From Dehalococcoidia bacterium (GTDB lineage Bacteria > Chloroflexota > Dehalococcoidia > Bin125): a stretch of DNA of 64,000 bases. The stretch spans positions 1-64,000 of the forward strand of contig CAXXNO010000012.1 in NCBI GenBank assembly GCA_963663235.2, written 5' to 3'. The notes beneath the pieces were generated by a model that was given only the letters and a program-made list of their open reading frames with translations, ran no database searches and was not told the DNA's origin. Shown in pieces: positions 1,387 through 61,906 of the stretch. Position numbers and translations under genes: made by a program. Numbering within the stretch: position 1 is the first letter of the stretch; each line of letters starts with the position of its first letter.

Positions 1387-1396
1387 GAACCTACAT

Positions 1397-2355: not shown

Positions 2356-2376
2356 GATCGCCTCGGCCTCGCCCGC

Positions 2377-4179: not shown

Positions 4180-4202
4180 GCGCCCTCGCTGGATCCGCTA
4201 CG

Positions 4203-4490: not shown

Positions 4491-4596
4491 CCCGTCGCCA
4501 ATCGCGACCGTCAGCGTCGCAATGTCGACGACTCAACTCGACGGCGCTTCACGGATGGAGTCTCGAACCGTCATAGGTACAAAGATCCGCGCCCGA

Positions 4597-5977: not shown

Positions 5978-6082
5978 TGCCCAGTCCTCCCTAGCGCTCC
6001 TTCATCGAAGGAGGCGATCTCCCCACGGCGCCAACGTGCCCACCCTGGATTTTGACCCCGGTGTGCCGACGCCCGACTCTCG

Positions 6083-6135
6083 TGTGAGGCGCCAATATCC
6101 TATCCGCCCTGTGGTGTCGCGATACTCCGTCCGCC
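6083..6135. repeat. Two tandem degenerate copies of the transposon-end-like motif
   Basis: tgtgaggcgccaatatcctatccg and tgtggtgtcgcgatactccgtccg resemble the reverse complement of 63530-63560 (ctgtggggcgccaaaactccatc). Confidence 0.5.
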
Positions 6136-6166
6136 AGCCCAGACAACACTCAACGCGGCCCCGACT

Positions 6167-6347
6167 GGTTCTGTCAGAACTCAGGGTCCACCGGAGGGCG
6201 TCGCCTCGTCAGTGCAACGACGAGGAGTCGCGAGGATGCGCCGCGAGGGGATCCGCGGAGCACGGTCACGGCTTCGTCGCCTTCATCAATCCGGGTCGCG
6301 TCGTCGGTCAGGGGGAGAGTCGCGATAGTGAAGGCTGTCAGAACCGC
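6167..6347 (+). mobile_element. Internally deleted IS6 derivative (MITE-like)
   Basis: Begins GGTTCTGTCAGAACTCAGGG and follows the IS6 leader (gcgtcgcctcgt..caacga..ggag); ends CTGTCAGAACC. Confidence 0.65.
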
Positions 6348-6391
6348 TGGTCAACGGTGCTTGCGTTCGCCGGCCGGTTCAGGCCCTTCGC

Positions 6392-7645: not shown

Positions 7646-7927
7646 GAGCCACCACCCGTAGTAGATCCGGCGCCGGCCACTGGCGATCAGAACGGCGTTA
7701 CGGACATGTGCTGCGGGCAGTCAGGAGGCCTTCCTGCGAGGGCACTACAAGTCGGACGCCGAGCATAGGATACGGGCCGCTCTTCGAGTGCGCTCGACGC
7801 GAAGGTACAACCGCCGATCTCCCGGAGAGCAGCGCACAATGGCGGGGCGAAGGTGCCGAGCCCGAGGAGCGTTCATGTCGAGTGCGATGAGGGAGACGGG
7901 GGCGCGTAGGACTCGCGCCCCGGGTTG

Positions 7928-8017
7928 CCTGTGGGACCACAAACCTCGGATCGCCGACGTCTCCCAGCGGAATTGATGGCCACGAAGCCGTCGGATTACA
8001 TTTTGCGGTCCCACAGG
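7928..8017. mobile_element. 90-bp MITE-like element, copy B, TIR CCTGTGGGACC(A/G)CAAA
   Basis: cctgtgggaccacaaa ... tttgcggtcccacagg, a 16-bp near-perfect inverted repeat. Confidence 0.75.
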
Positions 8018-8157
8018 GTTTGAGCCGCCACAGGGCAGTCCCTGAGAGAACGGCCACGTGGAGTCCTTCTCCCGTCGGGGGTTCGGTAAGCCGCGGGCCG
8101 CCGCGCGACCGGATGAGCCGCCCGACCCCGGCGCGACACGCGGCGCTGTCCATGGCC

Positions 8158-8210
8158 AGCGATGAGGTTTTGGCGCCCTAAAACGGATAGGATTTTGGGC
8201 CGGGACAGGG
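8158..8210. repeat. Two further stacked end-like motifs
   Basis: gatgaggttttggcgccctaaa and ggataggattttgggccgggacagg. Confidence 0.5.
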
Positions 8211-8240
8211 CAAGTCAGAAGCAAGGCCAGCCTGCCCGTC

Positions 8241-9155
8241 TCAGCGGACAGCGGGGATGACCGTCTCAGCGATCCGCCGGGTGTTCTCGGGGACGTACTC
8301 GGGCGGACAGCCTTGGGCGAACACGATGGTCCGCGCGCCGGCCTCGACGTACTCCTGCGTCCGCGCGATGCAGTCCTGAGGCGTGCCGACGATCGTGTAC
8401 TTCTCCACAATCTTCGAGAAGTCCTGGTTGTACTGACGACTGAGCTGCCGGTTCGCCAGGTCAAGCGCCGTGTCGCGGTCTTCGTGCACGCAGGTGAAGA
8501 CGAAGAGACCGCCTCGCACCGTGCCCGCGGGCCGGCCGGCCTCGGCGGTGAAGCGGGCGAGTTTGTCCAGGCTCTCGGCCAGCATCTGTGGCGTGTACAT
8601 GTAGGGCAGCCAGCCCTCGGCGTAGCGTGCCGCGCGCTGCATCGCCGCGTCGCGGCGTCCGGCCACCCAGAACGGCATCCGCGGCTTTTGGACCGGCCGG
8701 GGCGCAAGCGTGACGCCGTCGAGCTGCGTGAAGCGGCCGTGGAAGGACACGTCTTCCTCGGTCAGGAGCTTGTCGATCACTTCTAGCGCTTCGTTCGTGC
8801 GGGCGCCGCGCTCGCCGACGGGCACGCCGACGGCGTCGAACTCCTTGGGAAACTCGCCGCCGACGCCGACGCCGAGATGGAAGCGTCCGCCGGAGACCAC
8901 GTCCAGCACGGCGGCTTGCTTGGCTAGGAGGACGGCAGGATAGAGCGGGACCAGGGTGATGCTGCTCATCAGTTTGATGCGCTGCGTCGCGCCGGCCGCC
9001 GTTGCGAGCGCGATCAGGGTGTTCGTTGTGGGGCCGTGGAACATGATGTGCTCGCCGGTGAGCAGGTAATCGTAGCCCAGCGCCTCGGCGTTGCGCGCGT
9101 CGTCCTTGGCCCCATGCAACAGGCTCAGGTGAATCCCGAACTCGATCTCGCTCAT
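8241..9155 (-). CDS. LLM-class (probably F420-dependent) oxidoreductase
   Basis: GEHIMF, LAKQAAVLDVVSGGRFHLGVGVG, PRPVQKP. Confidence 0.9.
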   Translation of the reverse strand: MSEIEFGIHLSLLHGAKDDARNAEALGYDYLLTGEHIMFHGPTTNTLIALATAAGATQRIKLMSSITLVPLYPAVLLAKQAAVLDVVSGGRFHLGVGVGGEFPKEFDAVGVPVGERGARTNEALEVIDKLLTEEDVSFHGRFTQLDGVTLAPRPVQKPRMPFWVAGRRDAAMQRAARYAEGWLPYMYTPQMLAESLDKLARFTAEAGRPAGTVRGGLFVFTCVHEDRDTALDLANRQLSRQYNQDFSKIVEKYTIVGTPQDCIARTQEYVEAGARTIVFAQGCPPEYVPENTRRIAETVIPAVR

Positions 9156-9331
9156 TGGTGCCGCCTCTCAAGCGCCGAGAGTCTAAGGCGCTGCGCAGGT
9201 CCGCGCGACCGAGATCGCCGAGGGGACGTTCGATCCGCGTCCGGATCCCGTTCCCTCCAATCACTCCTACAGCCACGGTACCGACCTGGCACGCTACTTG
9301 GCCTAGGCGCTGCGGCGGCTCTTTGGGATCC

Positions 9332-10285
9332 GGTTCTGTCAGATCTCAGGGCTCGTCGGCGTAGCGTAGCCTCGTTCATGACGCAACGAGGAGACGCCGA
9401 TGCACTGTCCGCACTGCCGCTCGACTGCGACGACCAAGCGCAGGCATCGCACGACGCTAGGCTACCAGCGATTCAACTGTCGCGCGTGTGGACGGCGCTT
9501 CAACGAGCGGACCGGCACGCCCTTCAACGATCTCCAGTACCCGACGGACCTCGTGCTGCTCGCCGTGCTGTGGCGCCTGCGGTACAAGCTCAGCTTCCGG
9601 GACGTCGCCGAACTGCTCCTCGAGCGAGGCTACACGGTGACGCATGAGACGATCCGCGATTGGGAGTTCCGCTTCGCGCCACTCCTGGCGGACCGGCTTC
9701 GCGCCAAGCGGCGCGGTCGCGCGGGCGTCTCCTGGTACATCGATGAGACCTACGTGAAGGTCGCCGGGCGATGGTGCTACCTCTATCGCGCGATCGACCG
9801 GGAGGGCGCGCTGCTCGATTCGATGCTGAGCGCGCACCGCGACAAGCACGCCGCGCGACGCTTCCTGCGGGGTCTCATACAGATCGCCGAACGGAAGCCC
9901 TTACGCATCACGACCGACGCGCATCCCGCGTATCGCAAGGCGATCCGGTGGATCGTCGGGCGGAAGGTGCGACATCGCTGCAATCAATACCTCAACAACT
10001 GGATTGAGCAGGATCACCGCGCCATCAAGCAGCGCTACTATCCGATGCGGGGCTTCGGGAGGTTCGCTTCCGCTGCCCAGTTCTGCGCGGCCTTCGATGC
10101 GCTGCGCCAGTACTTTCGCGTTCCGCCCCGGCCCGGACTACCGATCCCGTTGGCGACGCGGCGCCCGCTGTTCGTCGCCCGCTGGCGGTCCCTGATCCAG
10201 GAGATGCAGGTCGCCTAGGACACCATCAACGCTCGCCGGATCACCACGCATCGTTGGCCCCGCTGCCCTCAGATCTGACAGAACC
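9332..10285 (+). mobile_element. IS6-family insertion sequence, copy 1 (954 bp)
   Basis: TIRs GGTTCTGTCAGATCT / AGATCTGACAGAACC; no target-site duplication seen. Confidence 0.93.
9400..10218 (+). CDS. IS6-family DDE transposase with N-terminal Zn ribbon
   Basis: CPHC...CRAC, WYIDETYVKV, YLYRAID, ITTD, NNWIEQDHRAIK. Confidence 0.95.
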   Translation: MHCPHCRSTATTKRRHRTTLGYQRFNCRACGRRFNERTGTPFNDLQYPTDLVLLAVLWRLRYKLSFRDVAELLLERGYTVTHETIRDWEFRFAPLLADRLRAKRRGRAGVSWYIDETYVKVAGRWCYLYRAIDREGALLDSMLSAHRDKHAARRFLRGLIQIAERKPLRITTDAHPAYRKAIRWIVGRKVRHRCNQYLNNWIEQDHRAIKQRYYPMRGFGRFASAAQFCAAFDALRQYFRVPPRPGLPIPLATRRPLFVARWRSLIQEMQVA

Positions 10286-38880: not shown

Positions 38881-38982
38881 ATCGCGAACCGCAACCCCAC
38901 CGACTCACGGTGGCCCCGATCGAGAGGTCTCCGTGAGTCGTATCCCAGATCCAACAACCTTCCTCACCCACTCGGCGCCACC

Positions 38983-39936
38983 GGTTCTATCAGATCTCAG
39001 GGCTCGTCGGCGTAGCGTCGCCTCGTTCATGACGCAACGAGGAGACGCCGATGCACTGTCCGCACTGCCGCTCGACTGCGACGACCAAGCGCAGGCATCG
39101 CACGACGCTAGGCTACCAGCGATTCAACTGTCGCGCGTGTGGACGGCGCTTCAACGAGCGGACCGGCACGCCCTTCAACGATCTCCAGTACCCGACGGAC
39201 CTCGTGCTGCTCGCCGTGCTGTGGCGCCTGCGGTACAAGCTCAGCTTCCGGGACGTCGCCGAACTGCTCCTCGAGCGAGGCTACACGGTGACGCATGAGA
39301 CGATCCGCGATTGGGAGTTCCGCTTCGCGCCACTCCTGGCGGACCGGCTTCGCGCCAAGCGGCGCGGTCGCGCGGGCGTCTCCTGGTACATCGATGAGAC
39401 CTACGTGAAGGTCGCCGGGCGATGGTGCTACCTCTATCGCGCGATCGACCGGGAGGGCGCGCTGCTCGATTCGATGCTGAGCGCGCACCGCGACAAGCAC
39501 GCCGCGCGACGCTTCCTGCGGGGTCTCATACAGATCGCCGAACGGAAGCCCTTACGCATCACGACCGACGCGCATCCCGCGTATCGCAAGGCGATCCGGT
39601 GGATCGTCGGGCGGAAGGTGCGACATCGCTGCAATCAATACCTCAACAACTGGATTGAGCAGGATCACCGCGCCATCAAGCAGCGCTACTATCCGATGCG
39701 GGGCTTCGGGCGGTTCGCTTCCGCTGCCCAGTTCTGCGCGGCCTTCGATGCGCTGCGCCAGTACTTTCGCGTTCCGCCCCGGCCCGGACTACCGATCCCG
39801 TTGGCGACGCGGCGCCCGCTGTTCGTCGCCCGCTGGCGGTCCCTGATCCAGGAGATGCAGGTCGCCTAGGACACCATCAACGCTCGCCGGATCACCACGC
39901 ATCGTTGGCCCCGCTGCCCTCAGATCTGACAGAACC
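38983..39936 (+). mobile_element. IS6-family insertion sequence, copy 2 (954 bp)
   Basis: Near-identical to 9332-10285; three differences seen. Confidence 0.93.
39051..39869 (+). CDS. IS6-family transposase
   Basis: Protein identical to 9400..10218. Confidence 0.95.
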   Translation: MHCPHCRSTATTKRRHRTTLGYQRFNCRACGRRFNERTGTPFNDLQYPTDLVLLAVLWRLRYKLSFRDVAELLLERGYTVTHETIRDWEFRFAPLLADRLRAKRRGRAGVSWYIDETYVKVAGRWCYLYRAIDREGALLDSMLSAHRDKHAARRFLRGLIQIAERKPLRITTDAHPAYRKAIRWIVGRKVRHRCNQYLNNWIEQDHRAIKQRYYPMRGFGRFASAAQFCAAFDALRQYFRVPPRPGLPIPLATRRPLFVARWRSLIQEMQVA

Positions 39937-40610
39937 CGGTGAGGGTGTTCAGGTATCGATTGCATCGGTGCCGCACCGTTCTCCCCAGGATCCCGCGGAT
40001 CGCTCGGCGGTACGGCGGATGCGGGTCCGTCGTGACACGCTCGGGCTTGCGCTCGGCCACGTCCACCAGGCGGCGCAGGAAGCGCCGGGCGGCATGCGTG
40101 TCGCGCTGCGCCCTCCGCCTCGAATCGAGGAGTGCCCCCTCGCGATCGATGGCCCGCTACAGGTAGCACCAGCGGGCCGCGCCCTTCACGGAGGTCTCAT
40201 CGATGGACCAGGCGACCCCGGCGCGGCCGCGGCGCTTGGCCCGGAGCGGGTCCGCCAGGAGCAGCGCGAGGCGGAACTCCCAACTCCGGATCGTCTCGTG
40301 CGTGACTGCGTGGCCCCGCTGGAGGAGCAGCGCGGCCACGTCCCGGAAGCGGAGCGTGTACCGCAGGCGCCACAGCACGGCGAGGAGCACGAGGTCCGTC
40401 GGGTCCTGGAGATCGTTGAACGGCGTGCCGGTCCGCTCGTTGAAGCGCCGTCCGCATGCCCGGCAGCGCAACCTGGGGTAGCCGAGCGTGGTGCGGGGCT
40501 TGCGCTTGATCGTCGCGGTCGAGCGGCAGTGCGGACAGGGCATGGCGTCTCCTCGTCGCGTCATGGGCAAGGCTACGCCACGCCTACGAGTCCTGAGATC
40601 TGACAGAACC
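39937..40610 (-). pseudogene. Degenerate related IS6 (left end at 40610, ATG at 40543), premature TAG, 3' end cut by IS6 copy 2
   Basis: Collinear with the intact transposase, no indels; many radical substitutions. Confidence 0.9.
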
Positions 40611-40945
40611 AGCAGATGCTGTGCTGCCCGTGCGTGTGCCACCGGCCGACGTCGTTTCGCCGGGCTCAGAAGTTTCCCGAGGCCACCTCACGCAGGATCG
40701 AGTTGTCCAGCGCCTGCTCCGCGACCAGCTGCTTCAGCCGCGCGTACTCGCGCTCCAGCTCCTTCAGCCGCTTCGCCTGGTCGACCCGCATCCCGCCGTA
40801 CTCGCGACGCCAGCGGTAGTAGGTCTGCTCACTCACCCCGAGCTTGCGCACCGCCTGGCCCACCGTATCGCCCTGGGCGAGGTGGACCTCTGCCTCCCGC
40901 AGCTTGGCGATGATCTCCTCAGCTGCGTACCGCTTCCGCTTACTC
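40611..40945 (-). pseudogene. IS3-family (IS407-like) orfA and start of orfB, truncated
   Basis: KRYAAEEIIAKLREAEV...EQTYYRWRREYGG...SGNF; ends GGGAAACTTCTGA. Confidence 0.85.
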
Positions 40946-51048: not shown

Positions 51049-52257
51049 GTGAAACGGAGGCGCGGCATGTCCCCGATGCGACTGATCTCGGTCACAGTCC
51101 TCGTAGTGGTCGGGCTGAGCCTGGGGCTCGGCCTCACCCTCGCGCGCTCGGGCGCGGAGGCGGAGGGTGGGGAACCGATCTCCGTGGGGGGAATCGCCTT
51201 GGGTTTCCCGGAGTTGAACTCCGCGGAGTGGTTCGTGGCGGTCGGCCCGCTGCCGGGGAGCAACGCCACGGGGAGCGGCGACGTGACGCTCCGGTTCGGC
51301 GGTGAGGATGTCGGGGACGTCTCTCTCCGCTTCTTCGACGTGTTCGTCGAGCTCGCCTTCGACGTGCAAGGTCCGCGCGAGGCCGTCACCGCCACCGAAA
51401 TCTACGAGGGGGACCCGGAGGACGGTGGTCGGTTGGTGGTCGCACTCCCCTGCGACCCGATTGCCCCTCGGGAAGCCGAGGGCGAGTCGTGCGAAGGGCC
51501 GAACGCAATCTTCAGCGACGGCTTTGAATCGGGCGACCTCTCGCGCGCGGCGCTGGCTGCCGGCCGGGTGTTCGTCCTCGTCCGCACGACGGCCGGGGAT
51601 CTCGGCGGCTTTCTCCAGCCCGTGGCCGACGAAGTCGTGTCCGGCGACGCGCCGGTTGAGGTGCAGATTCCTGCAGGTCTCAGCCCGCTCGGCTTTTGCG
51701 GCGCGGAGATGACCACGGACCAACTGTTCGATCAGTACCCGCAGTTGCGACGGGTGTTCGTCCTGGTCCCGCTGGAGCGGCGCTTCGACGTGGCGGATCC
51801 GGGACTGCCCCGCTCCATCCGGCAGAACTTCACTCTCCGGTTCGGGACGGCGGTGTTCGTGTCCGCCAGCGAGAGCTTCACCATGGAGATCCCCGTCGGC
51901 GGAGATGGTTCCGCGGGATTCCTCCCGACCCCCGTGGTCGATGACAGTTTGAGTTTCGATTTCCTCAGCGGCCTGAATTTCGTCGCGAACTGCGGGGATA
52001 CGGTGACGAACACCGACCTGCTGGACCGATTCGCGGAGAACGTCCGGATCTTCACTTTCCTCAACCAGGCGCGACGGTGGGTCGGGATCAGCACCGATCT
52101 GCCGCCCCTCCTCCGGGAGGAGACGCTGATCCCCAATGCGTCGGCCTTCATGATCATCACCGAGGTGCCGGGGACTATCGTTCTTCCGTGTCTCACCACC
52201 GACTGCACGCGCTGGAAGGTGGAGTTGGGCGGCGAGACCACGTCGGATGGCGTCTGA
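51049..52257 (+). CDS. Secreted protein with degenerate CHRD-like domain and two diverged C-terminal modules
   Basis: Signal peptide; ATGSG...TATEIYEG..GRLVVAL...LAAGRVFVLVRT; two G(L).....G/C...VF...RF/W...LP modules. Confidence 0.65.
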   Translation: MKRRRGMSPMRLISVTVLVVVGLSLGLGLTLARSGAEAEGGEPISVGGIALGFPELNSAEWFVAVGPLPGSNATGSGDVTLRFGGEDVGDVSLRFFDVFVELAFDVQGPREAVTATEIYEGDPEDGGRLVVALPCDPIAPREAEGESCEGPNAIFSDGFESGDLSRAALAAGRVFVLVRTTAGDLGGFLQPVADEVVSGDAPVEVQIPAGLSPLGFCGAEMTTDQLFDQYPQLRRVFVLVPLERRFDVADPGLPRSIRQNFTLRFGTAVFVSASESFTMEIPVGGDGSAGFLPTPVVDDSLSFDFLSGLNFVANCGDTVTNTDLLDRFAENVRIFTFLNQARRWVGISTDLPPLLREETLIPNASAFMIITEVPGTIVLPCLTTDCTRWKVELGGETTSDGV

Positions 52258-52275
52258 AGCCGCGCCGCCCCCGTC

Positions 52276-52362
52276 GGCAATACGTTCGCCACGCTCAACA
52301 ATGGCGACGCCTTCTTCATCCGCCTGACCGCCGCCGCGACGTGGGAGCAGCCCGCGCCGTAA
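52276..52362 (+). repeat. Second orphan 3' end copy
   Basis: GNTFATLNNGDAFFIRLTAAATWEQPAP*. Confidence 0.75.
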
Positions 52363-52608
52363 GCCACGCCGTCGCGCCCCGAGGAACGTGAGCACCTGAT
52401 CAGAGCCGGCGCTTTACGGAGTGTCTAAGGAATTTCCGCCAGGGGCCCCTAGCCAATAGATAGCGTCGCGGGAACCGGGGGTGCCTCGCGCCTCAGGCCT
52501 ATTGGATCAGCCGGATCGAGGCTCTTGGGAAACTCCTGTTCTGACGTAAAAGCGGCTGAGGGGCAGCGTGGGGCCACCAGGGGCCGATCTCGGGCATCGG
52601 ATCGAGGT

Positions 52609-52875
52609 CTAGGGGGCGTCGGGGGGATCGGCCGGAGGCAAGGCGCGGCGGCCGGCGCTTGTGAGTTTGTAGACCCTGCGAGGAGGAGCCGTCGTCGTAT
52701 CCCATCGACCCGACAGGAGGCCCTTACTGTCGAGCCGTTGCAAGGCCCCGAAGATAGTACGTCTCGGCTGGCCTAGAGCCTCGGCAAGCGCCCAGCCGTG
52801 ACGGGGCGACTCCGCCAGCGCTGCGAGGATCGTCTTCTCCGAGTCCAAGAGCCTGTCTGCCTTGCGTCGTGGCAT
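52609..52875 (-). CDS. PadR-like regulator, copy 2
   Basis: MPRRKADRLLDSE..IL.AL...PRHG...PPRRVYKLTSAG; paralogue of 50408..50746. Confidence 0.8.
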   Translation of the reverse strand: MPRRKADRLLDSEKTILAALAESPRHGWALAEALGQPRRTIFGALQRLDSKGLLSGRWDTTTAPPRRVYKLTSAGRRALPPADPPDAP

Positions 52876-52897
52876 CGCCCTTAATCTAGGCGTTCGT

Positions 52898-52950
52898 GGC
52901 ACTAGCGCGATAGACTACTTGACACTATTAGCGCTAGTGCCGTATACGAT
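52898..52950. promoter_or_regulatory. Palindromic operator enclosing TTGACA
   Basis: GGCACTAGCGC...GCGCTAGTGCC around TTGACA at 52919. Confidence 0.55.
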
Positions 52951-52952
52951 AG

Positions 52953-54202
52953 TGACCTGCCCCCCCAGAACCGGTCCAGATCCTGTGCGAGGATTCGGGC
53001 CGGTGCGAAGGCCTCCCCGAGTCGGCATGGCACGCAAGCGGTACGCGGCCGAGGAGATCATCGGCCACCTGCGGGAGGCGGAGGGGGTGCTCGCGCCGGG
53101 GGAATCGGTCGCGCCGGTCGCGCGCCGCCTCGGCGTGGCCGAGCCAACGTATTACCGCTGGCGGCGGGAGGACGGGGGGCTGCGGGTCGACCCGGCCAAG
53201 CGGCTGAAAGAACGGGAGCGCGAGAACAGTCGGCTGAAGCGGGTGGTGGCCGATCAGGCGCGGGCCAACGCGATGGTGCGGGACGTCGCAGCGGGAAACT
53301 TCTGAGCCCGGCCAAGCGGCGCCGGGCGACATCCTACCGCACGGACCCGTACGCGGTGGCGGAGCGGCGGGCCGGCCCGGTCACCGGCCAGGCGCGGGCG
53401 ACCCAGCGCGACGTGCCCCGGCCGTCCCCGGATGCGCCGGCGCTGATCGCGCGCAGCGTCGCGCTGGCCCCCCGCTGCGGCCGCTACGGCTCCCGTCGCA
53501 TCCCGGCCCGGCTGCGCCAGGCGGGCTGGCGGGTGAACCCCAAGCGGGTCGAGCGGCGCTGGCGTCAGGAAGGCTGGCGGGTCCCCGGGAAGCACCCCCA
53601 ACGGGGCCGCCGCTGGCTCGCGGCCGGCTCGCTGGTGCGGCGGCGGGCCGAGCGGCCGTCCCACGTCTGGTCCTCCGCCTTCGTCTTCGACCGCACCGCC
53701 GAGGGGCGCCCGGTGCGGATCCTCGCCATCGTGGATGAGGACCACCCGCGAGGGCCTGCGTCTCGACGTCGCCCGCCGACGGCGCCGCGACGTCGGCCTG
53801 GCGCGGTTGGCCCAGCTGTTCGTCGAGCGCGGGCCGCCGACGTTTCTGCGGTCCGCCAACGGCCCGGCGTGCACCGCCACCGCGGTGCGGGACTGGCTGC
53901 ACCGGGTCGGGGGCACGACCCGCTTCATCGAACCGGGCAGGCCTTGGGCGAACGGCTCTGGGGAATCGTTCAACGGCAAGCTGCGCGACGCGTGCCTCAA
54001 TCGCGAGCGCTTCGACACCCTGCTGGAAGCCCAGATCCTCATCAAGGGCTGGCGGCGGGAGGACAACCCGATCCGCCCCCACCGTGCCCTCGGCTCCCGC
54101 CCCCCCGCCCCGGAAACGCAGCAACCCCGGGAACGTCCCATGACGCGCGTCCCGGCGATCGGACTCACCTTAACGACTGGTACAACGATCGGGGGCAGGT
54201 CA
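52953..54202 (+). mobile_element. Full-length but degenerate IS3-family (IS407-like) element
   Basis: TIRs TGACCTGCCCCC / GGGGGCAGGTCA; orfA 53027-53305; orfB heavily substituted, with a frameshift near 53742. Confidence 0.9.
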
Positions 54203-54338
54203 GCGGTGGCCGTCACTGGTGGGACAACTCGCTCAACGTCTATGAGGTCGGTGTTACAATTTTCGTGTTCGAGCACGATCATCGCGTGCTCCCTTCGCCG
54301 AGGCGCCGCCCAACACCGGGCGGCGCTCTCATATCCGA

Positions 54339-54545
54339 CTACCGTCCGGCGGCAGTAGCCAACTCGGTTTTCTCCGCGATCCACTTCTCAAGTGCCACAC
54401 GGGACACGCGCCGCTGCCCGCCAACTTTCATGCTGGGCAACGTCCCATCCATGATCAGTGGCCACGTCGCGGACTCGCTCCGATTGATCAACTTGGCAAC
54501 GTCGGAGACTCGGAGCAGGAGTGGTTCCACAACTTTTCCCTTCAT
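54339..54545 (-). CDS. Excisionase-like HTH_17 protein
   Basis: LLRVSDVAKLI...GTLPSMKVGGQRRVSR.ALEKWI. Confidence 0.8.
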   Translation of the reverse strand: MKGKVVEPLLLRVSDVAKLINRSESATWPLIMDGTLPSMKVGGQRRVSRVALEKWIAEKTELATAAGR

Positions 54546-54632
54546 CGAAACCTATCCGCCTCTCGATCAGTCTTGTATGCTTCGCCTGGGCCGTCCAACG
54601 CTCTTGTGACGTATCAGCGTTACGGAGGGGAC

Positions 54633-55625
54633 ATGGCAGTAGTATCCGACACCATCGAGGTGATCGAAACCGTCGTCCCCTCGCGACTTGTCGAGGTGCG
54701 GGATGGATACGTCTATGTGCAAGACCCAAAGATGATTCTCACGAAGGACGAACTGAAGAAGATTGAGGACGCGTCCGACTATGTCTTCCAATTTCGACGC
54801 AGCCCCGAGAACGTCATCATCGAGTTCGTCGATCTCGAAGAAGGTGACGACGATCGGCTGGCCCAATTCGTCCGCCGATTCGGCCTTCTCGGCTTGTGCC
54901 AACACGGGAAGCCCCACAATCACCTCCCAGGTTGTGGGGCAGAGCGGGTGTCCTGGATCGAAGGCGAGGAAGACACGCCATCGCTCTGGAAGGCTCCACG
55001 GAGCCGTACAGAAGTTGGTATTCGCGAGCGTGTTGAAGCGTGGTACCACTATCGCGACCGGGCTGAAGCGCTCCTCACGATTGCGGTGTTTCTCAGAGGC
55101 AAGGTAGATGCGCGTCGAGGGAGAGTTCGGGGGGCATGGCGCACATTGATCGACGATGGGGGTGCCGACCAGTACCCCACGATCCCGACGCTGATGAGAA
55201 ACCGCGTCGCAGCCATCACAATGCACTCAGAGAACCTGAACGACTGGCTTCAAACCGCGGCACTGGCACTCTCGCAGGCTTGGGATCCGAATGAGGAACG
55301 CGGAAGAACGGAGTTGACCGGAACGCTGTTGGGCAATCTGGGGTATCAAATTCTGGCCGCGACGAACGGGTCAACGCTCCTGGCGTATTGTGACAACTGC
55401 GCTCGGCTCTTCGAACCGAACCCGCGTGTCCCCGAAGACCGCGGTAAGTACTGCAAGCTATGTCGCTCGAAGAACGTGAGCGGTCGAGTCCGCCAGCAGC
55501 GATTCCGTGAGCGGCAGCAGGAGATCCGCCGGTTAAACGCGGACGGTGTACCCATCCGCGAAATCGCGACGCGCATGGACGCCAAGCCAGAGAAGATTCG
55601 TAAGTGGTTAGGAGTCAAAAGATGA
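54633..55625 (+). CDS. Hypothetical protein with CxxC..YC Zn finger and C-terminal HTH
   Basis: GGAGG RBS; CDNC.RLF...KYCKLC..RQQRFRER; GVPIREIA....KIRKWL; overlaps the integrase ATG. Confidence 0.75.
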   Translation: MAVVSDTIEVIETVVPSRLVEVRDGYVYVQDPKMILTKDELKKIEDASDYVFQFRRSPENVIIEFVDLEEGDDDRLAQFVRRFGLLGLCQHGKPHNHLPGCGAERVSWIEGEEDTPSLWKAPRSRTEVGIRERVEAWYHYRDRAEALLTIAVFLRGKVDARRGRVRGAWRTLIDDGGADQYPTIPTLMRNRVAAITMHSENLNDWLQTAALALSQAWDPNEERGRTELTGTLLGNLGYQILAATNGSTLLAYCDNCARLFEPNPRVPEDRGKYCKLCRSKNVSGRVRQQRFRERQQEIRRLNADGVPIREIATRMDAKPEKIRKWLGVKR

Positions 55626-56758
55626 GCCGACGTGCCCGCGGTGAGGGCTCCGTTTTCAAGAGGTCCGACGGGAGATGGGCCGGCTAGTTGGTGTTGGGCT
55701 GGAAGGATGGGAGACGCGTTCGTAAGTTCGTTTACGGACGCTCCCAGGCTGAGGCTCTGCGGAAGCTCAGGGCCGCACAGAGAGCACAGGACGACGGACT
55801 GCCTCAGCCGTCCGAGCGAGAGACGGTCGGGGGTTTCCTGCGCGTCTGGATCGAGGAATCGGCACAGGTCCGCCTCCGCCCTTCCACGCTTCAGTCGTAC
55901 ACATCTATCGCCTACGGGAATTTGATTCCGGCCTTTGAAAAGACGCGGCTCGCGAAACTCAGCCCCACAGACGTCGAGGCCTACGTCGCCGAGAAGTCGC
56001 GAGTGGGGCTATCGGGGTACTCCGTCCGTAATCACGTCGCCCTCCTCCGCAGAGCCTTGAACGACGCAGTCCGCTGGGGCCTCGTGCCCCGCAATGTCGC
56101 CGCCGGCGTGAGGCCACCCCGGCTGCGCGACGCGAGCAGCCGCCCCTTCGACGAGGCGGAAGCCCAGCAGTTCCTTGCCCATGTACAAGGCGACCGCCTT
56201 GAGGCTCTCTTCGCTCTCGCGCTCGGCTTGGGCCTGAGACAGTCGGAATTATTGGGGCTCACGCATGATGCCGTCGATCTGAATCGCAGGCGTCTGCAAG
56301 TTCAGGCTCAGCTCCGGCGTCATCACGGTCGCTTCTGGCTGGAGGAACCGAAGACGGCGCGCAGCCGCCGCACCATGTCGCTTGAACTCCCGCTCGTCGA
56401 AGTCGTTCGGCGCCGTCGTGTCCTTCAGAAGGAAGAACAACTCGCTGCCGGCCCAGCGTGGCAGGGGAATGAGCTTGGCCTGCTGTTCAACACGGAGCTG
56501 GGAGGTCCCATCTCAGCCGCCACACTGAGCCGGCGCTTCCACGCCCTCTGTGAGGGAGCCGGTCTTCGCCGCGTGCGGTTCCACGACCTTCGCCACACAT
56601 ACGGGAGCCTCTTGGCGGAGAAAGGTGTCCCGATGCGGACGGCGATGGATCTCATGGGCCACACGCAGATCTCGACCACCGCCCAGGTCTACCAACACGT
56701 CTCCGAGGAGTCGATGCAGGACGCTGCCGCGCGGGTGTCAAGGGCTCTTTGGCGCTGA
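55622..56758 (+). pseudogene. Tyrosine integrase (phage/ICE type) with in-frame TAG at 55685-55687
   Basis: MSRRARGEGSVFKRSDGRWAG*; GLRQSELLGL, PKT, RFHDLRHT, MGH, YQH. Confidence 0.9.
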
Positions 56759-56911
56759 CTCTGCTTCGGGTGACTACGCCATCGTTTGACAGGCATTCTG
56801 ACAGGCACAGGACTGGACGTGGGCGGAGGGAATTGGACGTGGTTGGAGTCTCACTATCGAGTGAACCTGGTGCTTGGAGGACGCCGGTCTGCCTGAGAGG
56901 GCTCGCCTTGA

Positions 56912-56956
56912 TTTCCTAAACCATGTGCGCAGGTTCGACTCCTGCCGGGGGGACCA
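56912..56956 (+). tRNA. 3' half of tRNA-Arg(CCT), probable att site; not a complete tRNA
   Basis: TTCCTAA anticodon loop, GCAGG-TTCGACT-CCTGC T-arm, GGGGGGACCA end; no matching 5' half. Confidence 0.8.
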
Positions 56957-57048
56957 TATCGCACGTGGGGTACTCCGGCCCGCTCTCCCGACTAACACCT
57001 ACCCCTCGCGACGATAGCTTCGCGGATAGGGTTTTGAGCCACCACAGG

Positions 57049-57078
57049 TTGACAGATAAGAACATGTGTTCGTATCTT
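57049..57078 (+). promoter_or_regulatory. Sigma70 promoter with LexA (SOS) box
   Basis: TTGACA (57049), GAACATGTGTTC (57060-57071, GAAC-N4-GTTC), TATCTT (57073). Confidence 0.85.
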
Positions 57079-57133
57079 GCTGATCCTGCCGGGGTATCTA
57101 GGGCCGCTCTTGGGCTGCCGGTGGGGACCGGGG

Positions 57134-58399
57134 GTGAACGCCATCGCTCCGAGCGTCGCAGCTTCCAGGCGGACCGCCGCTGTACGCATCCCGCACTTCG
57201 CCTTGGCATTGGCGCAAGCCGCCAGAGGGTGTCTCCTGCGCCACCGCGGTCCGCCGCTGGTGCTCTGCGACGCCCATAGCGCCCCGGCGCGTGTGCTCGA
57301 CGCCTGCGACCAAGCAACACGGTTCGGCGTTCGCGCCGGGATGCCCGTGCGGGACGCCCTCGCCTGCTGCCCCACGACCGAATTCCTCTCGGCCGATCCC
57401 CTCCAGGCGCCGCGGGAGCGGGAGCGCTGGCTCGACGCGCTGGAGGCTGTCAGCCCGACCGTCGAGCCCGACACGCAGGATATCGGCACCGTGCTCGTGG
57501 ATCTGGAAGGGCTCGATCAGCTGCACGGCGGAGACCTCGGCGTGGTCAAGGCCCTCGCGGCCACGACGAAACAGGCACTCGGGCTGGAGCCGTGCATCGG
57601 CGTGGCGGACGGGCCATTCGCCGCCCGCGCGGCGGCCGTCAGCGCGATTCCTTCAGCGCCGGCGTTCGTGCCGCGGGGTCAAGCGCCCCGCTATCTCACC
57701 GCGCTGGGAGTGGAGCAGTTGCCGCTCGGCAGGGATGTCACCCACCGGCTGCGCACACGGTTCGGCATCCGCACGATCGGGGAGTTCGCGGCGCTCCCGC
57801 TGGGGGCGGTGCAAGCACAGTTCGGACTAGCGGGCCGCGAGGCGTGGCACCTGGCACACGGCCGCGACCGGCGACGGCTGCGGCCGCGGGTCCACGCCGC
57901 GCACCTAGGCGAACGACTGCAGTTCCCCTCGCCCACCGCCAGCGGCGAAGCGCTCCTGACCGCCGCACGCCATCTGGTGACGCGGCTCTTGCAACGGCCC
58001 GAGCTGGAGCAGCGCGCCGTGCGGCGGGTGACTGTCTGGATCCAGGTCGCCGACGGTCCCAACTGGGAGCGGAGCGTGACGTTGCAGGAGGCGTCGCGCG
58101 ACGCGCAGCGGCTGCGGATCGTGATTCGGCGCGAGTTGGAGCGGTTGTGGGCGGCCGGGCAGACAACGCTCCCCGGTCCCGTGGCCGAGATCGGGCTGGA
58201 GTTCGCCGACCTCTGCACGGAAAGCGGCAAGCAGGCCGCGCTGTGGACCGGGAACGGCCGGCGCACCAAGCAGTTGGACGACGCGGTGCGCCAGCTCCGG
58301 GCGCGCTATAGCGAGCCCACGCTTTTCCGCGTCGTGGAGGTGGAGCCGTGGTCGCGCTTTCCCGAGCGGCAGGCGGCGCTGATCGCCTACGACCCCTGA
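57134..58399 (+). CDS. imuB: ImuB-like Y-family polymerase homologue
   Basis: GVRAGM...ALACCP, SPTVE, DLEGL, GIRTIGEFAALP, QAALW clamp-like motif; upstream of dnaE2. Confidence 0.85.
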   Translation: MNAIAPSVAASRRTAAVRIPHFALALAQAARGCLLRHRGPPLVLCDAHSAPARVLDACDQATRFGVRAGMPVRDALACCPTTEFLSADPLQAPRERERWLDALEAVSPTVEPDTQDIGTVLVDLEGLDQLHGGDLGVVKALAATTKQALGLEPCIGVADGPFAARAAAVSAIPSAPAFVPRGQAPRYLTALGVEQLPLGRDVTHRLRTRFGIRTIGEFAALPLGAVQAQFGLAGREAWHLAHGRDRRRLRPRVHAAHLGERLQFPSPTASGEALLTAARHLVTRLLQRPELEQRAVRRVTVWIQVADGPNWERSVTLQEASRDAQRLRIVIRRELERLWAAGQTTLPGPVAEIGLEFADLCTESGKQAALWTGNGRRTKQLDDAVRQLRARYSEPTLFRVVEVEPWSRFPERQAALIAYDP

Positions 58400-58647
58400 G
58401 ACGGCCGCGGCCCCTGGGGGTCGAGGTCTCCGCACAGGGGATGCCGGCGGCGGTCCGCACCGCGGCGGGCTGGGTGGAGGTCGTCGCCGTGCTCGACCAT
58501 TGGCGGCTCGACGACGAGTGGTGGCGCGAGCGGCCGGAGCAGCGCTGGTACTACCGGCTCGCGCTCGCCGGCGGGCGCACGCTGACCGTGTTCCACGACC
58601 GCGCCAGCGGCGCGTGGCTCGCCCAGGAGTACGGACGGGCGGGCTGA
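58348..58647 (+). CDS. DUF6504-like small protein (ImuB C-terminal-like; start uncertain)
   Basis: VLDHWRLDDEWW...RWYYRL...VFHD...W. Confidence 0.75.
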   Translation: MVALSRAAGGADRLRPLRRPRPLGVEVSAQGMPAAVRTAAGWVEVVAVLDHWRLDDEWWRERPEQRWYYRLALAGGRTLTVFHDRASGAWLAQEYGRAG

Positions 58648-58648
58648 G

Positions 58649-61600
58649 ATGGCCTACGTCGAGCTGCACTGCCACAGCGGCTACTCGTTCCTAGACGGCG
58701 CTTCCACGCCGAACGAGCTGGCGCACTACGCCCACGCCCTCGGCCATTCGGCGCTCGCGCTCACGGACACCGACGGGCTCTACGGCGCGATGGAGTTCGC
58801 GAAGGCGGCGAGCGCCTGGGGGGTCCGGCCGATTATTGGCGCGGAGGTCACGCTGGCAGGGCCCGACGGGTCGCGGCCACGCATGGATCGCCCGGCCGAA
58901 GGCTATCGGCTGCTTTTGCTCGTCGAGAACGCCCACGGCTACGCCAACCTCTGCCGCCTGATCACGGCCGCGCACCTCGCCCACGAGAAGGGCGAACCGG
59001 CGCTCGACCCGGCGCTGCTGGCGACACATGCGAACGGCCTGATCTGCCTGACCGGCTCGCCAGATCACGGCGAGGTGGCGCGCCTCGCGTCGGCCGGCGA
59101 CCTCGACGGTGCACGCGCCGCCCTCGCGCGACTCGTCGAGTGGTTCGGGCATTCCCGGATCTACGTCGAACTCCAGCACCACTACGCCCCCGGCGACCGC
59201 AACAGGAACGAGCGGTTGGTGGCGCTGGCCCGCGACTGCGGCCTGGCAGTGGTGGCGACGAACGACGTGCACTACCACGCGCCGGACCGGCGTCGTCTGC
59301 AGGATGTGTTGGTCGCGATCCGCACGCACCAACCGCTCGACGCCTGCCACCGCGAGCGCTTCCCCAACGGCGAGTATTACCTGAAGTCCGAGGCGGAGAT
59401 ACGGGCCGCCTTCGCCGACTGGCCCGAGGCGATCGAGCACACGGGCGAGGTAGCGGAGCGCTGCCGCTTCGACATCGAGTCCCAGCTCACCTACCGCTTC
59501 CCCGATTACCCCACGCCCCAGGGCGAGCCGCCCGACGCCTATCTCCGCGCCGTCTGCGAGGCCACGATACGCGACCGCTACAGCACCGTCACCGGCGCGG
59601 TCCCTCCGAACGTGCAAGCGCGGCTTGAGGAGGAGCTGCGACTGATCGCCCGGCATAGACTCGCGGGTTTCTTTCTCATCTACCGCGACCTGATCGAGGA
59701 GGGGAAACAAGTGCTGGCGGAGCTGCGGGCCGAGCGCGGCGACCCCACGCCCGTGACCCACCCGCCGGGACGGGGGCGCGGCTCCTCGGTCGGATCGCTG
59801 GTCTGCTACCTGATCGGGCTCTCCCACATCGACCCGATCGCCAACGACCTCTTCCTGGGACGCTTCCTCAACGAGGAGATGGCAGCCGTTCCCGACATCG
59901 ATCTGGACTTCTCACGGGAGGTGCGGGAGCGGATGATCGCGCGCGTCTACGAGCGCTGGGGGCGGGATCATGTCGCGCTGACCTGCACGTTCCCGACCTA
60001 CCGCACGCGCGGGGCGATCCGGGAAGTGGGGAAGGCGCTCGGGCTTCCCGCACCGGCCCTGGACAAGCTCGCCAAGCTCGCCGCCCGGACCGGCGTGGAG
60101 GACCTGCCGCAGGAGATGGCGCGGCTGCCCGAGTTCCGCGACCAGACCCGCACCCCGATGTGGCGGCACTTCTTCCGCCTCGTGCAGGAGATCCACGGGC
60201 TGCCGCGGCACGTCAGCCAGCACGTGGGCGGCATGATCATCTCCTCCACTCCCCTCGTGAAGTGCGTGCCGCTGGAGAACAGCCGGATGCCGGGGCGAGT
60301 GGTCTGCCAGTGGGACAAGGACAGCATCGACGACGCCCGCTTCATCAAGATCGACTTCCTGGCCCTGGGGATGCTCTCAGCGGTGGACGAGTGCCTAGAC
60401 CGGATCCGCGCGCGCACGGGCAAGAGCGTGGATTTGTCGCGCATCGACTTCGCCGACCCGCGCGTCTACTCGGCGATCCAGGCCGGCGACACGGTGGGCA
60501 CGTTCCAGGTCGAGAGCCGCGCACAGATCCAGAGCATCATCCGCACGCGGCCCGAGAACCTGGAAGACCTGACGGTCCAGGTGGCGATCATCCGGCCGGG
60601 CCCCATCGTCGGCGGCGCGGTGAACCCGTACATCAATCGGCGGATGGGGCGGGAGCTCGTGACCTACGACCACCCGCTCTTGGAGCCCGCCCTGAAAGAG
60701 ACGCTGGGGGTGGTGCTCTATCAGGAGCAGGTGATCGAGGTCGTGATGGCGATCGGCGGGTTCTCGCCCGGACAGGCGGACCAGATGCGCCGGGCGATGC
60801 GCCGCAAGCGGTCGTTCGAGGCGATGGCGGAGTTCTGGGAGGCCTTTCGGGCCGGCGCAGCCGAGCGAGGCATTGCCCGTGATTTGGCGGAGACGATCTT
60901 TCGCAAGCTGCTGGGGTTCGCCGAGTTCGGCTTCCCCAAGAGCCACGCCGCCGCCTTCGGGCTACTGGCCTATCAGTCGAACTGGCTGCGGGTCCATTAC
61001 CCGGCGGAGTACCTGGCGGCGTTGCTCAATGCGCAGCCAATGGGCTTCTATTCGCCCGAAGTCCTGGTCGGCGACGCGAAACGCCACGAGGTGCCCCTCC
61101 TCGCGCCCGATATCAACCGCAGCACGGACCGCTGCGCGCCGGAAGGCGAGGGCGTACGTCTGGGTCTCGCGATGGTCCGGTCGATCGGTGAGACGCCGGC
61201 GAAAACGATCGTCCAGGAACGGGATCGCTACGGCGCCTACGGCTCGCTGTTCGATCTCTACCGGCGCGTGCCGTTGCGGCGGGAGGGGATCGAGGCGCTG
61301 ATCGAAGCGTGCGCCTTCGACTGGACGGGGCTGGAACGGCGGGAACTCCTCTGGCAGGTGGGATTGTTCTACCAGCCTGTCGCGCAGCCGGCCGGTGAGG
61401 CGGCCCGAACGGCGCCGAGTCCCCGGCAGTTACCGTTGGCGCTCCCGACGGTGCAGGACCAGCCGCCGCTGCGGCCGATGAGCCGCTGGGAACGGCTGGT
61501 GGCCGACTACCGGGCCCTCGGCCTTTCCACCGTCGATCACCCGATGGCGGCGCTGCGAAACTGGCTGGATCAATTGCACGAAGGCGTAGTGCGGGTGGCC

Positions 61601-61906
61601 GGGCTGGAGGAGATGGCCGCGGATGGCCCGGTGACCATCGCGGGCCTCGTGGTCTGCCGCCAACAACCGGAAACGGCCAAAGGGTTCATCTTCCTGCTAC
61701 TGGAGGACGAGACGGGGCTGGCCAACATCGTCGTCAGTCCACAGGTGCACAAGCAGTTCCAGGAGCTGGTGCGGCTAGAGCCGTTCGTCGTGGTGCACGG
61801 CGACTTGGAGCGCAAAGACGGCGTGACCAATGTGATAGGCCGGTCGCTGGAGCGGCTCGAGGTGCCGCCGGAGATGGTCGCGCCGGAGGCGCACAGCTTT
61901 CACTAG
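58649..61906 (+). CDS. dnaE2: Error-prone DNA polymerase III alpha (DnaE2)
   Basis: YVELHCHSGYSFLDGAS, GRGS, PDIDLDF, FGFPKSHA, LLNAQPMGFY, C-terminal AHSFH. Confidence 0.95.
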   Translation: MAYVELHCHSGYSFLDGASTPNELAHYAHALGHSALALTDTDGLYGAMEFAKAASAWGVRPIIGAEVTLAGPDGSRPRMDRPAEGYRLLLLVENAHGYANLCRLITAAHLAHEKGEPALDPALLATHANGLICLTGSPDHGEVARLASAGDLDGARAALARLVEWFGHSRIYVELQHHYAPGDRNRNERLVALARDCGLAVVATNDVHYHAPDRRRLQDVLVAIRTHQPLDACHRERFPNGEYYLKSEAEIRAAFADWPEAIEHTGEVAERCRFDIESQLTYRFPDYPTPQGEPPDAYLRAVCEATIRDRYSTVTGAVPPNVQARLEEELRLIARHRLAGFFLIYRDLIEEGKQVLAELRAERGDPTPVTHPPGRGRGSSVGSLVCYLIGLSHIDPIANDLFLGRFLNEEMAAVPDIDLDFSREVRERMIARVYERWGRDHVALTCTFPTYRTRGAIREVGKALGLPAPALDKLAKLAARTGVEDLPQEMARLPEFRDQTRTPMWRHFFRLVQEIHGLPRHVSQHVGGMIISSTPLVKCVPLENSRMPGRVVCQWDKDSIDDARFIKIDFLALGMLSAVDECLDRIRARTGKSVDLSRIDFADPRVYSAIQAGDTVGTFQVESRAQIQSIIRTRPENLEDLTVQVAIIRPGPIVGGAVNPYINRRMGRELVTYDHPLLEPALKETLGVVLYQEQVIEVVMAIGGFSPGQADQMRRAMRRKRSFEAMAEFWEAFRAGAAERGIARDLAETIFRKLLGFAEFGFPKSHAAAFGLLAYQSNWLRVHYPAEYLAALLNAQPMGFYSPEVLVGDAKRHEVPLLAPDINRSTDRCAPEGEGVRLGLAMVRSIGETPAKTIVQERDRYGAYGSLFDLYRRVPLRREGIEALIEACAFDWTGLERRELLWQVGLFYQPVAQPAGEAARTAPSPRQLPLALPTVQDQPPLRPMSRWERLVADYRALGLSTVDHPMAALRNWLDQLHEGVVRVAGLEEMAADGPVTIAGLVVCRQQPETAKGFIFLLLEDETGLANIVVSPQVHKQFQELVRLEPFVVVHGDLERKDGVTNVIGRSLERLEVPPEMVAPEAHSFH

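Follow-up and report, generated by a model that had tools for sequence, protein, structure and literature searches.

An IS407-like insertion sequence lineage of a Dehalococcoidia genome, with intact ends and a dead interior changed almost only from A:T to C:G

How can an insertion sequence (IS) lose its transposase through what looks like a single kind of base change while its termini stay perfect? This question is raised by the element at positions 52953-54202 (+ strand) of the window considered here, i.e. the first 64,000 nucleotides of contig CAXXNO010000012.1 (assembly GCA_963663235.2, Dehalococcoidia bacterium, phylum Chloroflexota). The genome carrying the window (hereafter G000) comprises 2.75 Mb on 14 contigs, is 92% complete and has a GC (guanine plus cytosine) content of 0.68. 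The element is a 1250-bp member of the IS3 family (IS407-like) with a GC content of 0.747, as compared with 0.65 and 0.61 in the 1-kb windows flanking it. A first-pass annotation had described a full-length IS3 with perfect terminal inverted repeats at this place, saturated with A>C and T>G changes, and had attributed this state to a process of the host. Its coordinates and anatomy were upheld and the observation itself was confirmed, in a stronger form than the bare sequence could reveal; its interpretation is partly supported. Along this lineage approximately one in five A:T pairs became C:G, with almost no other kind of change, and the outcome is a dead interior between intact ends. The element itself is an ordinary dead IS; its pattern of decay is not ordinary.

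Changes were assigned to the class of interest when they were A>C or T>G in directional comparisons, or A<>C or G<>T in unpolarised ones. The nearest less-changed relative was found in another genus of the same bacterial family (genome G003), whose copies are 95% identical to the window copy, have a GC content of 0.71 and retain intact DDE motifs. From one of these copies (G003b) to the window copy, 62 differences were counted (T>G 28, A>C 25, C>A 5, G>T 2, A>T 1, G>A 1), that is 53 A>C/T>G changes, 7 of the reverse class and 2 others. When these were polarised by three outgroups, 50 A>C/T>G changes were placed on the lineage of the window copy and 5 on that of G003. The sister copy at C6:147809 likewise differs from G003b at 62 positions, with 55 A>C/T>G changes, 7 reverse changes, zero transitions and zero other substitutions. 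Three intact 1249-bp elements from public metagenome contigs (M070, M066 and M069, each with orfA, orfB and the DDE triad) served as a baseline: the class accounts for 3/94 differences between M070 and M069, and the 183 differences from M070 to the window copy include 61 A>C/T>G changes vs 8 reverse ones, together with 53 transitions, 58 C<>G and 3 A<>T. Within G000, the 12 full-length copies of the family show 90 distinct changes from the reference state (36 T>G, 35 A>C and 19 others), the class thus representing 71/90 changes and affecting 71 of the 361 A/T sites (~20%). Nucleotide alignment, which might have returned an ordinary mixed spectrum, gave an extreme and directional one.

The two strands are equally affected, A>C and T>G changes being interspersed along the element. 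Runs tests were not significant for the family, for each copy or for a related copy of a third genus (G005b), and strand-coordinated mutation bursts were rejected on this basis. With respect to neighbouring bases, the sites most often changed have G or C on both sides (CTC 13/39, CTG 16/55, GTC 13/53), and sites adjacent to A or T were seldom changed (ATC 1/32, CTT 1/21, TTC 2/26). Position matters as well: in the first 100 bp of the element, 0/32 A/T sites were changed in the 12 copies, vs 9-33% in the interior bins, and the last bins carry fewer changes than the middle.

The anatomy of the window copy is otherwise that of an IS3-type element. Its left (TGACCTGCCCCC, 52953..52964, + strand) and right (GGGGGCAGGTCA, 54191..54202, + strand) terminal inverted repeats are 12 nt long, complementary at 12/12 nt (100%), and follow the TG...CA form; approximately 34 bp of the right end are conserved even between subfamilies of just 75-85% likeness. 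The element is a putative member of the IS407 group, for which TGACCTGCCCC ends and a 4-bp target duplication are typical. A gene of 92 aa, orfA (53027..53305, + strand), is recognised by the HTH_Tnp_1 profile (66.9 bits). A 7-bp insertion present in the window copy only lies between the left end and the start of orfA (53018..53024, + strand) and is possibly unreal, considering the indel errors of the assembly. At the end of orfA and in its frame stands the heptamer G GGA AAC (53293..53299, + strand), which follows the X XXY YYZ pattern and is kept in all relatives; from what is general in the IS3 family, it presumably works as a -1 frameshift slippery site, and in the intact relatives M070 and M066 orfB lies downstream in the -1 frame relative to orfA. 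In the window copy, orfB persists as an N-terminal remnant (53356..53760, + strand; HTH_21, 36.6 bits), where WSSAF replaces WSYDF and the first catalytic Asp has become Ala, and a C-terminal remnant (53735..54160, + strand; rve_3, 72.1 bits) carrying SANGPAC (second Asp to Ala), PWANGSGESF, RDACLN and RPHRALGS. A +1 insertion near the DEY codons of orfB is common to the window copy, the G003 copies and two more distant copies of G000 (85% identity). Since all 12 full-length copies have Ala at both catalytic Asp positions (WSSAF or WSDAF, and SANGPA), none of them can encode an active transposase; the Glu of GESF is retained. The triad is complete in M070, M066 and M069, in a copy on contig C14 of G000 and in the element G003g.

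The derived replacements of orfA relative to G003b are K>H, V>G, Q>P, Y>D, Q>P, L>R, L>R, D>A and L>V. The first-pass annotation had used as its reference an IS407-like fragment of a different subfamily (40643..40938, - strand; 77% identical over 296 bp), and had listed eight orfA replacements as single A>C or T>G changes. Six are indeed derived (EV>EG, LAQG>LAPG, EYGG>EDGG, VDQ>VDP, KEL>KER, ALDN>ARAN); the remaining states, AEPT and AAG, are also those of the intact M070 and M066, and are ordinary subfamily differences from the fragment. Its reading of orfB agrees for the most part with our alignments: WSYDF>WSSAF, SDNGPEF>SANGPAC, PWENGY>PWANGS, RDECLN>RDACLN and the YN..RPHSALGY block are derived A>C/T>G changes, and both DDE aspartates are destroyed in an element with perfect terminal repeats. 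Overall, the element resembles the IS407 group of the IS3 family by its length (~1.25 kb), its HTH_Tnp_1 orfA, its HTH_21 and rve-type orfB in the -1 frame, its X XXY YYZ heptamer, its TG...CA inverted ends and its relatives with intact D, D and E residues. It departs from that family by the catalytic Asp to Ala replacements, the shared frameshift and the lack of target duplication in 12/12 full-length copies, a comparison in which indel-level frame breaks of the present copies are partly unreliable. It is a member of a non-autonomous IS407-like lineage with a dead transposase gene and intact ends.

This lineage is represented in G000 by 12 full-length copies, which are 96.6-98.7% identical to the window copy (counted among them), and by 5 additional copies cut off by contig ends. 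The window copy therefore cannot stand as the independent second case that it had been taken for, as it belongs to a family of at least 17 members with 23 shared changes in the class. More distant IS407-like elements of G000 are the two copies at 85% identity and two others at 73-74%, of which one is complete and one partial. On contig C14, the 73% copy retains both orfA and orfB intact between similar ends, and it is a possible source of transposase acting in trans. Relatives with an intact transposase and near-identical ends occur in the same genomes as the dead copies, and the latter were most likely moved in trans by such relatives. Across the bacterial family, the IS407-like subfamily (E <= 1e-50) was detected in 8/65 genomes, G000 included. 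The right-end 26-mer was matched at 6 loci of genome contigs and at 10 of metagenome contigs, with carriers including the metagenome-assembled genome 'Chloroflexi bacterium TK10-74A' and a 'Dehalococcoidia bacterium' chromosome; a scan of the metagenome contigs with the left-end 35-mer gave no match.

The 12 full-length copies have 29 fixed changes in common, including 23 A>C/T>G, and vary among themselves at 59 polymorphic sites. Changes of intermediate frequency belong to the class in 39/44 cases. Singletons are mixed: private changes number 0-2 per copy (6 in one copy) and comprise 8 of the forward class and 7 others. Incompatible site pairs represent 425/946 of the pairs, and linkage falls with distance (mean r2 of 0.27 within 50 bp and 0.14 beyond 600 bp; p = 0.028). 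Target-site duplications of 3-5 bp were sought at all 12 full-length copies and none was found; one of the 85% copies has a 5-bp duplication (GACTC). We read the absent target duplications and the reticulate polymorphisms as frequent recombination among copies. Two particular cases were observed. The copy at G000:C10:3697-4937 is the only one without the +1 insertion at the DEY codons, and its orfB frame is therefore open; it is among the least changed copies, and recombination, reversion or a fault of the assembly might account for it. On contig C6, two inverted copies 16 kb apart (C6:130339-131580 and C6:147809-149050) have the same tetranucleotide AAGA, at the left-end flank of one and at the right-end flank of the other, which fits an inversion after a single insertion.

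Recombination of this kind opens the way to GC-biased gene conversion, whereby a MutY-type glycosylase would remove A from A·G heteroduplex mismatches and thus spread rare A>C changes, other changes being lost in the process. The evident exchange between copies would suit such a process, as would the presence of a MutY-like gene in G000 and the excess of the class among intermediate-frequency changes (39/44) next to mixed singletons. MutY-like genes were matched in 5/5 genomes searched. Conversion bias, however, cannot create mutations: by our estimate, no fewer than 16-30 substitutions of other kinds would separate the G003 copies from those of G000 under an ordinary supply, whereas 0-2 were counted, which means that the mutation supply itself was skewed. 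Moreover, A>G and T>C changes are absent, though they would be favoured by a general GC bias. This explanation is considered as very doubtful. The MutY-like match of G003 (G003:C1:1561626-1562239) consists of two adjacent pieces in different frames, in an assembly with intact rpoB and rpoC, and the split is possibly a real frameshift.

Given the high copy number of the element, the quality of the assembly has to be considered. In G000, rpoB and rpoC are split over frames at C4:537318, 537532, 538489, 540732 and ~542390, with an extra G in a G-run at three of these breaks, i.e. approximately one indel error per 1.6 kb of these genes. Consequently, indels of this genome and the resulting frame breaks, including the 7-bp insertion of the window copy, are not trustworthy. 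Could the substitutions also be artefacts, introduced into a high-copy repeat when it was sequenced, assembled or polished? The homopolymer indels found in essential genes speak for it, mosaics among copies could stem from misplaced reads, and A>C/T>G is a frequent class of short-read error. Yet the 23 class changes are fixed in all 12 copies, the pattern is also found in G003 and G005, whose assemblies have intact rpoB and rpoC, non-IS DNA of equal GC content is clean, and the sequence context differs from GGT>GGG, a known short-read error context. Public runs X6, X7, X8 and X10 (four runs from two studies), examined at the level of contigs, point the same way: alternative letters occur at 16 listed places of the IS with depths of tens to hundreds, and 14 of these are in the class, while 3 listed places outside the IS in the same contigs are C>G, G>A and A>G. 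An artefact is thus regarded as highly improbable.

The same directional change was met in other elements and other genera. In G003, copies a and b differ by 12/13 changes in the class, and b differs from a partial copy by 7/7. In G005, the copy G005b shows 55 changed positions among 308 shared-ancestral A/T columns in comparison with its tandem neighbour, and 65 A>C/T>G vs 12 reverse changes in comparison with the intact M070. With G003g as reference, a fragment of another IS407-like subfamily of G000 (C14:1-600) has 28 A>C/T>G vs 1 reverse change, and a fragment from a fourth genus (G004) has 24 vs 5. An element of a different family is also concerned: a truncated IS6-family fragment of the window (39937..40650, - strand; GC 0.709) has a directional A>C/T>G excess of 23 vs 6 against an active IS6 copy, 20 vs 4 against a second copy and 23 vs 1 against C4:41652-42138. 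This fragment is probably what the first-pass annotation had regarded as its first case; its excess sits on top of much ordinary divergence and does not amount to the same saturation. Directional change is mild in the G003 copies and weaker still in the IS6 fragment. It is nevertheless not limited to one element, as had been anticipated, and its recurrence across elements and genera indicates a process that the element does not encode. This argues for a cause supplied by the host or by the way in which the elements are copied.

Such a distribution could also arise if the copies had been mutated elsewhere, in another host, a plasmid or a phage with A:T>C:G-prone replication, and repeatedly imported. 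Copies from two genera that differ by A:T>C:G only, without transitions, do imply recent crossing between genera. In the four public runs, with 233-324 contigs per run on the stretch 51800-55400 of the window, the summed contig depth is 120-1700 over the IS vs 4-19 on its flanks, and such a depth means that the community pool of the element is very large and diverse. At ~70 times the flanks, it also corresponds to more copies in the community than in this genome, as import would have it. On the other hand, twelve or more separate imports into one genome would be unparsimonious, and the G000 copies have 23 derived changes in common and recombine with each other. Repeated import was therefore judged quite improbable.

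The surroundings of the element provide an internal control. Both flanks of the window copy have 99.4-99.6% identical duplicates elsewhere in the assembly. The left flank differs from its duplicate at 17 positions (11 transitions, 6 A<>C/G<>T) and the right flank at 25 (15 transitions, 5 A<>C/G<>T, 4 A<>T, 1 G>C), so that the class represents 11/42 differences for both flanks together. The comparison of 71/90 in the IS with the flanks, entered as 11/43, gives p = 8e-9 by Fisher's test, and the recount of 42 leaves the result unaltered. Equal mutation of the flanking DNA had been named as an observation that would speak against the first-pass annotation; the flanks, integrase block included, have an ordinary spectrum. 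The contrast extends to the whole genome: in repeat pairs of at least 94% identity, 1989/2378 mismatches are in the class for the IS family vs 156/799 for everything else. Another 680 repeat pairs, with identities as low as 70%, have a median class share of 0.20, and none lies above 0.35. A 7.6-kb paralogous pair with much higher ordinary divergence (51 transitions and 55 C<>G) has only 22 changes in the class. Whole-genome self-comparison revealed no second repeat family with the skew. The process is thus not detected genome-wide; in the present comparisons the spectrum is confined to IS DNA, and its contrast with the ordinary flanks speaks for a mutation process that targets such elements or acts only within them.

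Not all IS DNA is affected. The 85% pair of G000 is the only IS pair with shared flanks and must therefore have diverged in place; its differences are of the ordinary kind (8 transitions, 3 C<>G and 6 class changes). A dead 263-bp IS fragment (C4:694200) shows no excess (3 vs 2), and a copy in genome G010 is unaffected (4 A>C/T>G vs 12 reverse). Active families are clean: five autonomous IS407-like copies of G003 have 0 mismatches, and eight active IS6 copies of G000 (955 bp, 99.6-100% identity) have at most 2 class changes between them. Two further candidates for an in-place comparison were rejected. The C10 and C12-end copies, considered as an allelic pair, lie 157 bp apart in an otherwise common flank and are thus separate insertions, and the composite pair L051/L052 of G003 has flanks that differ and too few differences (3).

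Could these dead elements be the fossils of a MutT-type mutator acting on the whole genome, in a past episode or as a standing bias of the family, with genes masked by selection? Near-exclusive A:T>C:G change on both strands is indeed what MutT-deficient mutators produce according to PMC3556519, and the purity of the present spectrum matches these mutT strains. Several unrelated dead IS pieces of one genome carry the changes, and the private changes are mixed, as though the process had ended. No TIGR00586 (MutT) match above cut-off was obtained in 5/5 genomes, a weak point since only 3/14 controls pass, and several weak Nudix-like matches were obtained. Four-fold sites of rpoB and rpoC have GC values of 0.93-0.99 in five genomes (G000, G003, G005, G007 and G011), at a genome GC of ~0.68, which is in line with a standing bias, but G000 is not higher than the others. 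As an observation in its own right, synonymous composition in this bacterial family, judged from these sites, is pushed very strongly to G/C.

Where a mutator should have left its mark on the chromosome, other values were obtained. The action of MutT-deficient mutators extends to the whole genome, whereas here the flanks, the other repeats and essential genes are without excess. Among these repeats are paralogous pairs whose ordinary divergence is ten-fold that of the IS copies, and which any such episode should therefore have reached. Neither the dead IS pair at 85% nor the fragment at C4:694200 is affected, and the ends of the IS are spared. G000-specific replacements in RpoB and RpoC, at positions invariant in four relatives, include 13 A>C/T>G vs 10 reverse. 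Mean GC at third codon positions (GC3) is 0.85 over 1085 long open reading frames; taken alone this value does not separate the models, although it means that many A/T third positions survive. In addition, separate episodes in four genera, or transfers, would be required. A past mutator episode may have occurred, though action on all DNA of the cell is not what is observed, and as the explanation of the pattern it is considered unlikely. For the host process proposed by the first-pass annotation, this leaves a supply by the host or the mode of copying; a uniform genome-wide bias is contradicted by the other repeats, recent duplicates, the segmentally duplicated 85% pair, the dead fragment and the five G003 copies, all without the pattern.

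Restriction to IS DNA, on both strands and with a local context preference, is also what a dedicated system mutating transposons or repeated DNA would produce, for example by base excision followed by biased gap filling. Destruction of the transposase would be its outcome, and recurrence in four genera would be in keeping with it. So would parallel sites in independent lineages: among the 55 changed sites of G005b, 23 are shared with G000 vs 10.9 expected (p = 2.4e-5). The eight IS6 and five autonomous IS407-like copies are, however, untouched, the ends are spared, which a homology-sensing process would have no need to do, and no candidate gene was found. No bacterial enzyme is known to yield this A:T>C:G outcome, and a search of full-text literature gave no report of IS-restricted A:T>C:G change in bacteria. 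The counterpart would be repeat-induced point mutation (RIP) of fungi, which produces C-to-T transitions before meiosis and marks all sufficiently long repeats. RIP has in common with the present case one class of change on both strands of repeated mobile DNA, a context preference and the destruction of genes; it differs in that the change is here a transversion, in a bacterium, and young identical repeats (the eight IS6 and the five G003 copies) are untouched. Diversity-generating retroelements likewise act on adenines at a very high density. They replace A by any of the other bases, within a short target and on a single strand, whereas in the present element A is replaced by C alone, T is replaced by G just as often, and the two kinds are intermingled along its whole length. 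A dedicated system is thus held to be improbable. The related proposition that sponge-associated Chloroflexota possess a process recognising transposon DNA or its copying intermediates, converting A:T to C:G with very high density, and thereby destroying the transposase and sparing the neighbouring chromosome, is given about the same small chance, or very slightly more; if true, it would be a prokaryotic counterpart of RIP with a transversion chemistry new to any genome-defence system.

The reading that we favour, tentatively and with a confidence that stays somewhat short of probable, is that DNA is synthesised with low fidelity from an oxidised dGTP pool when copies undergo copy-out or are repaired by recombination, a mechanism deduced from the spectrum and from the location of the changes. 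In this scheme, G, probably as 8-oxo-dGTP, would be misincorporated opposite template A by a polymerase without proofreading, of the DinB type or another error-prone enzyme. Misincorporation would take place during DNA synthesis peculiar to IS copies, and not during that of the ordinary chromosome: IS3-type copy-out replication, repair synthesis in recombination between copies, or both. Only copies with working ends would be propagated, so that the ends would remain intact and the interior would decay, in a lineage freed from selection on its dead transposase and still selected for working ends.

Several results lead in this direction. Ordinary flanks, paralogues and some dead IS, spared ends and few private changes together make a uniform genome-wide mutator a poor fit, and with it the process becomes tied to activities that only IS have, namely copying for transposition and recombination between copies. 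Spared ends, few and mixed private changes and the ordinary 85% pair also argue against an in-place process blind to the ends. Precedents exist for the separate components. That 8-oxo-dGTP causes A-to-C transversions is stated in PMC3556519 and PMC2817480. In Pseudomonas aeruginosa, PMC12318082 links Pol IV and oxidised guanine nucleotides to locus-specific A-to-C changes with Glu/Asp-to-Ala replacements. For the IS3-type copy-out step, a preprint (10.1101/2023.06.07.543989) proposes the involvement of a specialised polymerase, the IEE PrimPol. A DinB-type gene is present in G000 (PF00817, 171 bits, G000:C6:243629-244066), with matches in 5/5 genomes searched, and the window itself contains a pair of ImuB-like and DnaE2-like genes, 3 kb to the right of the IS. 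The Pol IV case of PMC12318082 is close to ours in its locus-specific A-to-C changes, its Glu/Asp-to-Ala replacements, its changes to Gly and their inactivating effect; it differs by a 5'G/3'C preference that is absent here, by a density far below the ~20% of A/T sites reached here, and by its targets, which are hard-to-replicate chromosomal regions there and IS copies here.

Other results weigh against low-fidelity copying as the cause. Changed sites show no enrichment of the context published for Pol IV (5'G and/or 3'C), with 44/71 changed vs 184/288 unchanged sites; the preference seen is for G/C on both sides, with avoidance of neighbouring A/T. A Prim-Pol (IEE-like) profile search of five genomes gave no match. 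ImuB-like genes were tried as a co-occurring cause and rejected, because they are present in 41/65 genomes of the family and thus too widespread to track the phenotype. Transposition is not visibly mutagenic in the five autonomous G003 copies (0 mismatches) or in the eight IS6 copies (at most 2 class changes). For young active families to be this clean, the load per event would have to be small and the rounds many, or the defective lineage would have to be special. Immobile truncated fragments (the IS6 fragment and C14:1-600) are changed, and on this reading the changes must be older than the truncation. Because the assembly contains indel errors, variants may be imperfectly phased among the 12 copies. 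Finally, every step of the mechanism is deduced from the spectrum and the distribution of sites.

The ImuB-like and DnaE2-like genes belong to a mobile-looking segment located directly to the right of the IS (54339-61906), which has a duplicate at G000:C9:139293-148579. It contains an excisionase-like HTH_17 gene (54339-54545, - strand), a gene for a 350-aa protein with no assigned family, a tyrosine integrase (55688-56758), the ImuB-like Y-family gene (57077-58399) and the DnaE2-like gene, encoding an error-prone Pol III alpha (58649-61906). The integrase-bearing segment (9.3 kb) is present twice in the assembly, with 99.6-99.7% identity. The nearest relative of the ImuB-like protein in the bacterial family is 37-40% identical, and the segment looks imported. 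Elsewhere in the window, active-looking IS6-family copies (955 bp, intact transposase frame, GC 0.658) are located at 9331-10285 and 38982-39937; approximately eight such copies (99.6-100% identical) are present in the genome. Positions 1-10285 match the end of contig C8 (221676-231960) in reverse complement with 99.87% identity. Other long near-identical pairs also touch contig ends, and these pairs may represent assembly redundancy or strain variants and not true duplications. From 10000 to 39000, the GC skew is strongly negative over a long region, reaching -0.31 per kb, and GC rises to as much as 0.745.

Bacterial mutation is generally held to be A:T-biased, and a falling GC content is expected of dead genes. 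In the present bacterial family, the dead mobile elements of at least four genera move in the opposite direction by one transversion class, with ~20% of A/T sites changed, and the DNA next to them does not follow. The pattern is filed by us as oxidised-nucleotide or error-prone-polymerase mutagenesis confined to mobile DNA, with a directed system as a live minority possibility. Transposases rich in Ala, Gly, Pro and Arg and bounded by perfect ends should be read as hypermutated pseudogenes. If error-prone synthesis in transposition or recombination is the cause, IS copies would record the polymerase and the nucleotide pool of their host, information that is hard to obtain in uncultured symbionts, and transposition would be self-mutating and self-limiting. 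If a past mutator episode is the cause, the same copies would constitute a rare natural fossil record, and if a directed system is at work, it would be a new kind of genome defence.

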